Shown: positions 29,438 to 33,590 of the stretch, in pieces
Numbering within the stretch: position 1 is the stretch's first letter
How the letters are laid out: each line of letters starts with the position of its first letter
Assembly (NCBI RefSeq): GCF_018350175.1
Contig: NC_058368.1
Span: 68,822,001-68,886,000 of the forward strand
Length of the DNA: 64,000 nt
Direction: 5' to 3'
Source: Felis catus
Taxonomy: Eukaryota
Program-made: the position numbers and the translations under genes
Notes under the pieces: generated by a model
Seen by the model: the letters and a program-made list of their open reading frames with translations, nothing else
The model's database searches: none
What the model was told of the DNA's origin: nothing

Positions 29438-29629
29438 AACACAAACCATTCTTTCCTTTTATGTCTCCAATTGACTGTATTTTGAAAGTCCCCTTAAATT
29501 TTTCCTCCTGGCAGTTTTTCCTCTCCCCAGTTCCTAATGGGAGTAATTCTTTTCCTTTCCTTCCTCACACGCTGCACCTCCCCCAACACACAACCTTCAT
29601 ATGTACACTCAAGATAAAGAAGTTGGTGG

Positions 29630-31730
29630 TTGGAACTAAAAAATGAGTTCACTAATATTGTAGGATACAAAATCAATACACAGAAATCTGTCATCTTTCT
29701 ATACACTAATAATGAACTCTCAGAAAGAAAAAATAAGAAAAATGTCTCTTTTCCAACTGCATCAAAAAGAATAAGATACCTAGGAATAAATTTAACCCAG
29801 AAGATAAGAGACCTGTACACTGAAAACTATATGAGATTGACGAAAGAAATTGGAAGGCAGCTATGCTAACTGTTATACCACCAACGCAGGATTGATGAAA
29901 GAAATGGAAGAAGGCACAAATAAGTAGGAAGATAGCCCATGCTCATGGATTGGAAGAATTGATATTGTTAAAATGTCCATTCTACCCAAAGGGATCTACC
30001 AATTCAAATAATCCCTATCAAAATTCCAATGGCATTTTTCACAGAACTAGAACAAATATTCCTAAAATTTATATAGAGTCAAAGAGACTGAATAGCCAAA
30101 GACATCTTGGGAAAGAAGAACAAAGCTGGAGGTATCATGCTCTCTGACTTCAAACTATGTCACAAAGCTATAGTAATCAAAACTGTGTAGTATTGGCATA
30201 AAAACAGATACATAGATCAATATAACAGAATAGAGAGCCCAGAAACAAACTCACTCACATAGGGTCAACTAATTTGCAATAAAGGAGCCAAGAATATACA
30301 ATGGGAAAAGTCTCTTCAATAAATGGTGTTGGGAAAACTGGACAGCCACATGGAAAAGAATGAAACTGGACCGCTTTCTTACACCACACACAAAAATTAA
30401 CTGAAAATGGATTAAAGACCTGAGTGTAAAGTCTGAAACCATTAAGCTCCTTTCCTAAAAGAAAATATAAGTGGTGACATCAGTCTTGGTGATGATTTTC
30501 TGGACTTGATAACAAAAGCAAAGACAACAAAAGCAAAAATAAACAAGTGGGACTACTTCAAACTAAAAAGCTTCTGCACTGTAAAAGAAACCAGCCACAG
30601 AATGAAAAGGCATCAATGGAATTGGAAAAACAATTTGCAAATCATAGATCCAATAAAGGGTTAATATCCAAACTATATAAAGAACTCATACAACACAATA
30701 TCAAACAAGCACACAAAATCCTATGCCCATTTAAGAAATGGGCAGAAGATCTGAATAGACATTTTTCCAAAGAAGATATGCAGGTGGCCAACAGGTACAT
30801 GAAAAGGTGCTCAATATCACTAATCATCAGAGACTTACAAATAAAAACACTATATTACCTCACATCTATTAAACTGGTATTATCAAAAAGATAAGAGGTA
30901 CCAAGTTTGGCCAGGATGTGGAGAAAAGGAAATCCATTGCATTGGGAATGTGAAATGGCACAGTCACTATGGAAAACAGTATGGAGGTTCCTCATAAATT
31001 TAAAAAATAGAATTACCACATGGTCCATCATTTCCACTTCTGGGTATTTATCCAGAGAAAATGAAAACACTAACTTGGAAAGATATCTGCACGCCTATGT
31101 TCATTGCAGCCAAGATATGGAAGCAACTCAAGTGTCCATCAACAGATGAATGGATAATGAAAATGTGATATATATAAACAATGAAATATTATTCAGGCAT
31201 AAAAAAGAATGAAATCTTGCCATTTGCAACAACATGAGTGGACCACGAGGGCATTATATTATGTTAAGCAAAATAAGTCAGACAGAGAAAAGAAACACTA
31301 TATGACTTCACTTGTACATAGAATCTAAAAAACAAAACAAAACAAAAAACAAGCTCATAGATACAGATAGATTGCTGGTTGCCAGAGGCAGAGGAGAGGA
31401 ACTGGCAAAATGGGTAAAGGGGGTCAAAAGTACAAACTTCCAGTTATTAGAAAAGAAAGAAATTCGTGAGGACGTACTATTCAGCACGGGGACTACAGCT
31501 AAGAATACTGTATTACATAGTTGAAAGTTGCTAAGAGAACAAATCTTAAACGTTCTCATCACAAGAAAAAAATTCTGCAGCTACATATGGCGATGGATGT
31601 TAATGACTTACTGTGGCGATCATTTCACAATATATACAAATATCAAATCATTGTGTTGTATACCCTAAACTAATAGAATGTTGTATGTCGGTATTACCTC
31701 AATTTAAAAAAAAAAAGAAAAGAAAAAGAA
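29630..31730 (+). mobile_element. 5'-truncated L1 (about 2.1 kb; ORF2 3' part, 3'UTR, poly-A)
   Basis: ORF2 remnants [52 protein letters not shown] with stops/frameshifts; A-rich tail 31706-31730. Confidence 0.95.
29850..29887 (-). pseudogene. Tailless 5'-half tRNA-Gly(TCC) retropseudogene nested in L1
   Basis: Minus strand reads GCGTTGGTGGTATAACAGTTAGCATAGCTGCCTTCCAA, 35/38 identical to my recalled mammalian tRNA-Gly-TCC 5' half; flanked by 16-bp direct repeat GATTGA(C/T)GAAAGAAAT (29835-29850, 29890-29905). Confidence 0.88.
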
Positions 31731-32057
31731 ATGGGGGTGGGGGAAGATAGAGATTTAAAAGCCTATACAACCCAGTCCTTGGGGACAAGGTCTTGCATTG
31801 AGTATTCTGCCCTCCAGAGATGCTTCTGGAAGTAAAGAGAGGAGGCTTAAGGGATGCCATGTTTTAAGCCTTTCAGTTTGAGTGCCAAATACCTACCCTT
31901 TGAAGTGAAAGCTTTCTAAATGTATGAACTCTCACGCTCCTGTTTTAAAAAGTCAATTGACTAAATTTTAGAACCATAAAACACCCCAGGCCACTTAGTC
32001 ATTACTGCTCAGCACTGATCCTTCCTTGCCACTACAAAATATCAAAGAACGCGTGCT

Positions 32058-32060
<3 letters not shown>

Positions 32061-32134
<74 letters not shown>
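32061..32134 (+). repeat. Compound (TG)17(AG)20 microsatellite
   Basis: Visible run. Confidence 0.95.
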
Positions 32135-32137
<3 letters not shown>

Positions 32138-33590
32138 CTTGGAACCTGGATCTACTGGTATAGTGCACTGAACAAGAAGACCAGCGTGTGAAACACTAAG
32201 GAGAGAGAAACACGGGAGCGTGAAGTAAAGAACAGAGGTTAGAAACAGCAAAGCCAGCATTTCAGAAGCCATTTTCTCCCACGAGACTCTGTAGCTCTGG
32301 TCTTCTGGCCTCTCTGGCGGCCACTCGTTCTGAGCGATGCCGGGGACCAAATGGATCCCATCTCAGACAGCCTGGCAGCAGCCGTTCTGCACAGAGCACG
32401 GGGCCGACTCCCCCGGGGCTCTAGCTGGTGGTGTGCAGAACGGAATCATCTGGAGATGCCACCTCTCTCTTTTCTCAGCTGCAGCAAAGCACTGAATTCA
32501 GACGCGAGGACGCGGTGTCAGCCCGGACTCTACCTGGGGAGTTTTCATTTGAATCCGGGATCTGAGATCCACTCTTCCAGGGCAGCGGCACTGCTGTTCA
32601 GAGCAGCCTCACCCTCCCGTCTGGAGAAGGCACCGGCTGACTGTGGGACAGGGCTCCCCGCCAAGGCTCTGGCTTTACACTCAAACACATCTGGGCGGCC
32701 GGGGTTTTTTTTCTCCCCTTTTCTGTTTTAAGAAATTACCAAAAAAAAAAAAAAAAAAAAAATCTAGGGAGTGCAGAAGAATGGAAATAGCCCCAGACTG
32801 GGAGTCAGGAGTCCTGAGTGCTTTGCCTCAGCAGCATTGACCTTGGGTGATCTATTGAGTCTATAGTCCGACCTGCTTCCACCTACTGTGATGCCACACT
32901 TGCTCCTCACGGATAACGAGAAGGTTAAAGAAGACAGTGTGTGTGACAGTGCTTTGGAAACAGCGGCTCCTATGTATGCGTAAGGCAGCACTGTCAACAA
33001 TAATAATGGAGTGCCCGTCTCTGAGAATGACTATAACTATTTTTTTTTTTACTAATCACCTTCAATCAAAAACACTGTATTAAAAAAAGAGAAAATATCT
33101 CATTGAATCTGTCCTATCAACTTTTAACTGTCAGCTTCACATGAAAGAAAACAGGTATTTTCCCCAGCCCATATTTCAAAAAGGAGAAAACATTTGCTAA
33201 CATTAAATAAGAGTTTATACCTCTATTATTATATCGCCATGCTGATTATGTGCGTGTTATAGAATCAGTGGATGATTTTGGGGGGAAAACTTTATTAATA
33301 CCAATTTTTACTCTACCCGTGACACCTGCTATTTGCTGAGTTCTGACCATGGGAAGTGGGGAAGAGGTAGCACTTTGTTCAGCCCAACTTTTCAAGTCAA
33401 CTGGTTTTACTTCCTTGAGAGAACTAAAGCTCAGAGAGGTTAATTCACTGCCTAGGATAACAGTTCACTGGCAGAGCTCGGGATTTGAATCCAGATCACT
33501 CTCGGTCTAAAATTTGTGTTTTTGTTTTGAAATAATACTCTCTCTGAGCTATGTGACAGCTATCATCAGTAAACTGCAACATTCATTTTA

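Follow-up and report, generated by a model that had tools for sequence, protein, structure and literature searches.

The window examined here is a stretch of 64,000 nucleotides of the Felis catus genome (G000:C1:68822001-68886000, in an assembly of 2.43 Gb and 71 contigs). On its minus strand, positions 29850-29887 hold the 5' part of a tRNA-Gly(TCC), 37-38 bases long, lying inside a long interspersed element (LINE). Very probably, this is a 3'-truncated, tailless tRNA-Gly(TCC) retropseudogene that arose by LINE-1 (L1) target-primed reverse transcription, a dead fossil for which a function is unlikely. The evidence consists of its match to a tRNA gene of the same genome, the missing tail, the duplication of the target site, the empty site in relatives of the LINE, and a pattern common to a whole family of such copies. 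The locus itself is ordinary: the genome holds about a hundred like it, and their class was described in 2004 and 2015.

A truncated tRNA-Gly(TCC) copy in a resident LINE

The minus strand of 29850-29887 aligns with positions 1-38 of the tRNA-Gly(TCC) gene at L003:1501-1572, with 35 of 38 bases identical, and the match has an E of 2.1e-6 in a search of the whole genome. ARAGORN calls this gene a tRNA-Gly with the anticodon tcc at position 34. The loop CTTCCAA occupies tRNA positions 32-38, and the window copy stops inside it, at position 35-38 of 72, keeping 35-38 nt. The first-pass annotation, made from the letters of the window, had proposed a retroposed 5' part of tRNA-Gly(TCC) that ends just past the anticodon, lacks a poly-A, and has its own target-site duplication (TSD) of 16 bp. 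The tRNA-Gly match on which the proposal depended exists, and the other parts of the claim agree with what we found. The 3' end lacks an A-run, and the tRNA part directly adjoins the TSD there. The direct repeats (29835-29850, GATTGACGAAAGAAAT, and 29890-29905, GATTGATGAAAGAAAT, both given as plus-strand copies) are 16 bp long and identical at 15 of 16 sites, and a repeat search found no other direct-repeat family in 29780-29960. Across the locus, the plus strand reads ...GAGATTGACGAAAGAAAT TGGAAGGCAGCTATGCTAACTGTTATACCACCAACGC AG GATTGATGAAAGAAAT GGAAGAAGGCAC... ARAGORN called no tRNA in the window, and Rfam, run permissively on 29750-29990, returned just two chance matches with E above 2, neither of them a tRNA; half a cloverleaf is beyond both tools. 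A chance similarity to a tRNA was ruled out by the E value together with the zero count that a reversed control pattern gave in the genome.

The copy is best described in parts. Positions 29853-29887 align unambiguously, on the minus strand, with tRNA positions 1-35 of the gene at L003:1501-1572. The junction 29850-29852 (TTG on the plus strand, C36 A37 A38 on the minus strand) is common to the tRNA and to the probable target, and its origin is thus ambiguous. The copy does start at tRNA position 1, as had been stated, but reading out the sequence shows two additional bases (CT, minus strand, 29888-29889) between the upstream repeat and this position that the earlier reader did not mention. 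These are either untemplated or the leftover of a 5' leader; they are unlike the 5' flank of the gene closest in type (…CCGGA). That gene, the single one on contig C2, has T at position 20, as does the window copy, and the 12 other genes have G20. This assigns the window copy to the T20 isodecoder, whereas G20 is present in 85 of the 89 copies treated below. The three mismatches to the gene are adjacent transitions at tRNA positions 15-17, in the D loop (window 29871-29873). They are private to the window locus: a pattern search of the genome for this variant, allowing at most 2 mismatches, matched only the locus itself. A variant source gene for the three changes was ruled out by the same search.

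The host is the 3' portion of an L1-type LINE on the plus strand (29630-31730, approximate borders), running from the part of open reading frame 2 (ORF2) downstream of the reverse transcriptase domain to an A-rich tail at about 31705-31730. The flanks of the insert are part of a very abundant repeat: 29560-29850, used as a query against the genome, gave 3619 first-look candidates, with matches starting at about query position 68-82, and the host copy is 5'-truncated near 29630. The RVT_1 domain scores above the Pfam cut-off in better-preserved relatives of the host (L043, 41.5 bits; L045, 51 bits; also L038, 30 bits), and the window's own LINE reading-frame piece gives a sub-threshold end match to it (E 0.095). 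We take the host to be L1 ORF2 from these RVT_1 hits and from peptide motifs typical of L1. The insertion site lies about 20 codons beyond the reverse transcriptase domain.

We aligned 29700-30050 with 12 other LINE copies, of which one (L037) ends short of the site, leaving 11 that are informative. All 11 lack the 55-bp insert and are colinear as ...GATGAAAGAAATTG|AAGAAGACAC..., and in all of them the 16-18 bp of the TSD are single-copy. A genome search with the 76-nt junction revealed no second copy; its three candidates were the gene, the query locus, and a further half situated in a microsatellite. The empty relatives and the unique junction thus indicate a locus-specific insertion that split a resident LINE and is younger than it, rather than a part of an L1 subfamily consensus, in agreement with the first-pass annotation. 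The host differs from its relatives by about 20%, and its own branch amounts to an estimated raw distance of about 10%. Set against this branch, the 3 changes in the 35-38 bases of the insert and the 1-2 sites at which the TSD copies differ indicate that the insertion is old, yet younger than its host.

Other insertions and repeats are found around this LINE family. The copy L044 carries, near the same ORF2 region of the LINE alignment, a poly-A-tailed, tRNA-like short interspersed element (SINE), about 200 bp long, which presumably resembles the carnivore tRNA-Lys SINE family. Just 3' of the tail of the host, window positions 31995-32200 form a compound (GT)n/(GA)n microsatellite, as judged from repetitive translations of reading frames. 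An independent Gly-TCC 5' part (L028:1501-1537; G000:C18:107239335-107239371) lies in another copy of the host LINE family, 45 bp downstream of the ORF2 site used in the window; it is likewise antisense and has a TCCA overlap at ...CATGGATTGGAAG. The purine-rich sense strand of this stretch of ORF2 seems to be a recurrent target.

The Gly-TCC family and the choice of template

Using the whole Gly-TCC gene as a query, we obtained 97 first-look candidates, the best 40 of which were scored and comprise 13 full-length genes and 27 5' parts. One gene is on C2, ten are in an array on C42 (about 5.87 kb apart), one is on C37, and one is on C17. A pattern search with positions 1-35 and at most 3 mismatches gave 113 occurrences, 13 of them full genes, against 0 for the reversed control. 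The genome has at least 100 further Gly-TCC 5' parts. The window copy, with 4 mismatches to the G20 pattern, is outside the 113. Flanks were taken for 100 of the 113 pattern matches, about a dozen being left out, and the distinct contexts numbered 94: 5 gene contexts and 89 retrocopies, i.e., the window copy and 88 others.

In the scan for copies sharing the 3' breakpoint, which had been suggested at the outset, the end of each of the 89 retrocopies fell within tRNA positions 35-43, most often at position 38 (41 copies) and 37 (24), then at 36 (9), 39 (8), and 35 (4), with one each at 40, 41, and 43; none of the 89 is full-length. A confident adjacent TSD was found in 62 of the 89, with a median of 16 nt and a range of 10-41. 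The strict overlap between the target and the end of the tRNA in these 62 copies is 0 nt in 1, 1 nt in 6, 2 nt in 12, 3 nt in 24, 4 nt in 9, 5 nt in 4, 6 nt in 4, and 8 nt in 2. An overlap of 2 nt or more is thus seen in 55 of 62 copies (chance 1/16), and the mode is 3 nt (24/62). The duplicated segment is preceded by TT in 21 of the 62, with T at -2 in 37 and T at -1 in 31, and the modal pattern of the family is a 3-nt CAA overlap preceded by TT. On the top strand, such T-rich bases characterise sites cut by the L1 endonuclease.

The 5' ends of the same 62 copies are informative on the template. No additional 5' bases are present in 25, and 13 have a leader of at least 4 nt that ends like the 5' flank of one of the genes: gtgca, of the C42 array, in nine; gtgt, of the C17 gene, in three; and cagcgg, of the C37 gene, in one. 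The templates of these 13 were therefore unprocessed nuclear pre-tRNAs from at least three source loci. Over positions 1-35, 13 of the 89 show no difference from a source gene.

The substitutions in the 89 retrocopies (L002, L017-L033, L073-L143, and the window) are unevenly distributed. CpG decay accounts for 16 and 33 changes at C2 and G3, respectively, and other peaks are at G9 (7, 4 of them G>C), T13 (8), A14 (7), and T25 (7). These latter peaks might reflect misreading of modified bases by the reverse transcriptase, or chance. One copy (L002:1523-1557; G000:C46:57057454-57057488), ending at position 35, lies between (CCTT)n and (CTTT)n microsatellites, the purine-rich complement of which would pair with a CUUCC loop.

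In 23 copies, the duplicated segment starts at position 35 or earlier, which places the nick 2 nt or more ahead of A37. A37 is nevertheless matched in 19 of these 23 deep-paired copies and A37 together with A38 in 12, against a background of A of 0.31, and the match extends to G39 in none of the 23. The template hence usually contained A37 and A38, and the pairing ends at the border between loop and stem, as would be expected if the target paired with a folded tRNA whose loop is open. As far as the sequences of the family can tell, a (pre-)tRNA primed internally is a more likely template than a cleaved tRNA half.

The C42 array makes it possible to compare tRNAs at equal gene dosage. It consists of tandem units of about 5.87 kb (G000:C42:63407345-63477883; L005-L014 and L144), each with Gly-TCC, Asp-GTC, Leu-CAG, Gly-GCC, and Glu-CTC. 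We searched with the whole gene in each case and counted the 5' parts that end beside the anticodon. Gly-GCC has 11 (36 of 36 candidates scored), Asp-GTC has 4 (24 of 24), Glu-CTC has at least 11 (best 40 of 47), and Gly-TCC has at least 27 (best 40 of 97), or about 100 when counted by pattern. A loop ending in CCAA is found only in Gly-TCC; Gly-GCC, Glu-CTC, and Asp-GTC have A37 C38. The tRNAs known for the most abundant 5' halves, Gly-GCC and Glu-CTC, are not those copied most often. The roughly 10-fold excess of Gly-TCC copies, the leaders derived from gene flanks, and the pairing of A37 and A38 together make a natural argument for the loop sequence. They suggest that this sequence, through its pairing with the nicked target, and not the abundance of tRNA halves, decides which tRNAs get copied. 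To go by the 13 copies that show no difference from a source gene, the CUUCCAA loop of tRNA-Gly(TCC) might be a specially efficient internal priming site for L1 that is still active in the lineage. A 3' part was also seen: G000:C10:16807506-16807543 matches positions 35-72 of tRNA-Glu(CTC) at 97%.

The junction and competing origins

The ends of the TSD can be read in two ways. Position 29906 is G in the right repeat of the window and T in all 11 informative LINE relatives. The left TSD copy ends ...AAATTG, matching the relatives, which read ...AAATTG|AAGAAG. This suggests that the original target was ...AAATTG/AAGAAG. With this target, the TSD is 18 bp long (16 of 18 sites are identical today), the left copy probably extending to 29852 and the right one to 29907 with a later T>G at 29906, as supported by the repeat search and the LINE alignment. 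The nicked strand would end in ...TTG-3', pairing with C36-A37-A38, and TT would stand on the top strand before the duplicated segment. Read in this way, the window locus (TT|CAA, 18-bp TSD, unambiguous end at position 35) shows the modal values of the family throughout. The first-pass annotation had instead given a 16-bp TSD, which corresponds to a nick at AAAT/GG, and had noted a microhomology between the target flank and the 3' end of the fragment. The overlap with the target stands, but the CTTCCA likeness is shifted by one base and is probably due in part to the later substitution at 29906; a 3-nt CAA overlap is put in its place. A third reading, in which the nick is at GGAAG/AAGG and the overlap (CTTCCA) is 6 nt long, was rejected: it predicts a junction one base shorter than the observed one and needs an extra indel.

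The preferred sequence of events starts from the target given by the LINE relatives. The L1 endonuclease would have nicked the plus strand of the resident, 5'-truncated LINE, probably at ...GAAAGAAATTG/AAGAAG. A T20-type tRNA-Gly(TCC), presumably a whole tRNA or pre-tRNA rather than a fragment, would then have offered C36-A37-A38 of its single-stranded anticodon loop to the freed 3' end (...TTG), and the pairing of the two would have primed the synthesis. Reverse transcription would have begun at position 35 of the RNA and run to position 1, followed by two more bases, and a second-strand cut 18 bp off would have produced the TSD. The C/T difference between the TSD copies, the T>G at 29906, and the three adjacent transitions in the D-loop part would be later changes.

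Several observations weigh against this account or parts of it. Taken strictly, the present-day sequence has an overlap of 1 nt and CC before the duplication, i.e., an atypical site. One T/G substitution is required by either reading of the junction, after the insertion for the 18-bp TSD and before it for the 16-bp TSD. At the window locus alone, the 18-bp/3-nt and the 16-bp/1-nt readings are thus equally parsimonious, and the former is preferred only because the modal pattern of the family fits it. The CT at 29888-29889 fits no known gene flank, making the copy uninformative on the processing of its template. The account does not explain why three D-loop changes are adjacent; one multi-base event or an error of reverse transcription may lie behind them. 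A single locus cannot separate internal priming from the copying of a fragment that ends at A38. Finally, the counts from the gene queries for Gly-TCC and Glu-CTC, on which the comparison at equal dosage is based, are lower bounds.

The first-pass annotation had left open whether the locus records a tRNA half or internal priming in the anticodon loop. The former, in which the template was a pre-cleaved 5' half (from the germline or a stress-induced, tRNA-derived RNA, tiRNA) copied from its true 3' end, so that the locus is the fossil of a half, is the best surviving alternative, although we consider it unlikely. The copy does stop in the anticodon loop, where halves end; 25 of the 62 well-defined sisters begin exactly at +1, as does a mature tRNA; and a fragment ending exactly at A38 would look the same in sequence as internal priming. 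Yet the 13 sisters of 62 with gene-flank leaders represent unprocessed nuclear precursors, not mature cytoplasmic halves. The pairing through A37 in 19 of 23 copies, and through A38 as well in 12, excludes a fragment cut at the CpA step between C36 and A37, which we take to be the usual angiogenin site. Gly-GCC and Glu-CTC, whose halves we take to be the most abundant, have about 10 times fewer copies at equal gene dosage. A 2025 preprint (10.1101/2025.02.02.635956) proposes halves as the source of the 1-37 tRNA parts in its L1 chimeras, whereas Noll et al. 2015 (PMC5322556) report that they saw no truncated-RNA intermediates for 5S and U2 and favour internal priming. The leaders and the A37 matches thus tip the balance towards internal priming and away from the half. 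It is doubtful that the Gly-TCC copies, including that of the window, record germ-cell fragments, leader-bearing or mature, that end at A38; if they did, the roughly 100 copies would be an archive of germline tRNA-fragment biology and not of loop priming.

Much less probable is an origin at the DNA level or independent of the endonuclease, in which a fragment of tRNA cDNA or of a tRNA gene served as filler in the repair of a double-strand break. The present-day AAAT/GG is indeed poor as an L1 endonuclease site, and the two bases at the 5' junction look untemplated. However, a clean duplication of 16-18 bp is the mark of staggered L1 cleavage, and the locus fits the family of 62 copies, with the same range of TSD lengths and T-rich bases before the nick. 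A tRNA/L1 chimera made by twin priming in a single event with one TSD is close to untenable: relative to the LINE, the tRNA part is in antisense orientation, about 220 bp from the truncated 5' end, and most tRNAs in the reported chimeras are half-length and antisense (10.1101/2025.02.02.635956), but such an event would put the tRNA at the 5' junction of the LINE with a non-LINE TSD around the whole unit, whereas here the LINE is colinear on either side and the TSD consists of ORF2 bases that occur just once in each of the 11 relatives.

Comparison with known elements

The class to which we assign the copy was summarised by Noll et al. 2015 (PMC5322556), after Schmitz et al. 2004, as tailless retropseudogenes truncated in loops. 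According to this account, a target nicked by LINE-1 primes reverse transcription within a single-stranded loop, preferentially by internal priming at A-rich single-stranded regions. The templates are processed or unprocessed tRNAs, the target is complementary to the terminal 2-18 nt, and its consensus is TT/WAAAAWWX(0-17). Their methods demand a 5' end that is (almost) complete, with a tRNA precursor of at most 20 nt allowed, a 3' truncation of at least 10 nt, an element of at least 30 nt, no oligo(A), a TSD of 8-35 nt with an identity of at least 70%, and a truncation point that is single-stranded, as in a loop. The window copy starts at tRNA position 1 with 2 bases before it, ends at position 35-38 of 72 with 35-38 nt kept, and has no terminal oligo(A). 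It has a TSD of 16 bp (15/16 identical), or of 18 bp (16/18) when read with the LINE relatives, and its end lies within loop 32-38. Complementarity to the target is 1 nt, after CC, today, and 3 nt (CAA), after TT, with the base of the 11 relatives. A cleaved half is expected to begin at the mature 5' terminus and to stop at a known cleavage site, whatever the pairing with the target, and the window copy has 2 additional 5' bases. The proposal that the element belongs to the tailless class made by the L1 machinery matches the published description, with the complementarity to the target depending on the reading of the junction.

The excess of Gly-TCC is also apparent in human. In the list of supplement file 2 of PMC5322556, text counts give 67 for GlyTCC, 16 for GlyCCC, 16 for GluCTC, 15 for AspGTC, 13 for GlyGCC, and 3 for LysTTT, among 667 occurrences of 'trna' in all. 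The GlyTCC rows are about 36-38 nt long (judging by the first five rows per term). Both the class and the Gly-TCC excess are thus already in print or in published data, and we found no further description in the literature bearing on the locus or the family. The single locus is of little weight, being a neutral fossil within a LINE copy that is itself dead; human examples of this kind were catalogued in 2004 and 2015. Its family context is modestly valuable: the roughly 10-fold excess of Gly-TCC over Gly-GCC, Glu-CTC, and Asp-GTC at equal dosage recurs as an excess in the human list, and what the family, with its controls at equal dosage, adds to the case for loop priming is useful but incremental. 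Such insertions, nearly free of homoplasy, could serve as phylogenetic markers. In 24 sequencing runs from 13 studies, with three organism labels and four runs (X1 and X8 among them) without a label, the share of 40 sampled words was 0.90-0.93 for organism A, 0.35-0.88 (mostly 0.80-0.88) for B, and 0.07-0.10 for C, shares that by themselves say nothing on the presence or absence of the insertion.

The closest known elements are the tailless retropseudogenes of PMC5322556, which resemble the window copy in their intact 5' end with or without precursor bases, the lack of oligo(A), a TSD of 8-35 nt, the truncation in a loop, and, if the junction is read with the base of the LINE relatives, the target complementary to the last bases and the TT before the nick. 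The window copy does not differ from them in kind; what differs is the species, the locus, the nesting in a LINE, and the T20 isodecoder. The 2025 preprint (10.1101/2025.02.02.635956) describes half-length antisense tRNA parts fused to L1, for which it proposes twin priming. These chimeras share with the window a tRNA segment 1-37 that is antisense to the LINE, but they are single events at the 5' end of a new L1, whereas the LINE of the window pre-existed, was split, and had its own sequence duplicated. The tRNA-derived SINEs, e.g., the carnivore tRNA-Lys family (PMC13756887), are likewise derived from tRNA, mobilised by L1, and present in many copies. They are described as having A and B boxes, a body, an A-rich tail, and descent from master copies, whereas the Gly-TCC parts of 37-38 nt have neither B box nor tail and, because their gene-flank leaders derive from three loci, arise afresh from tRNA genes.

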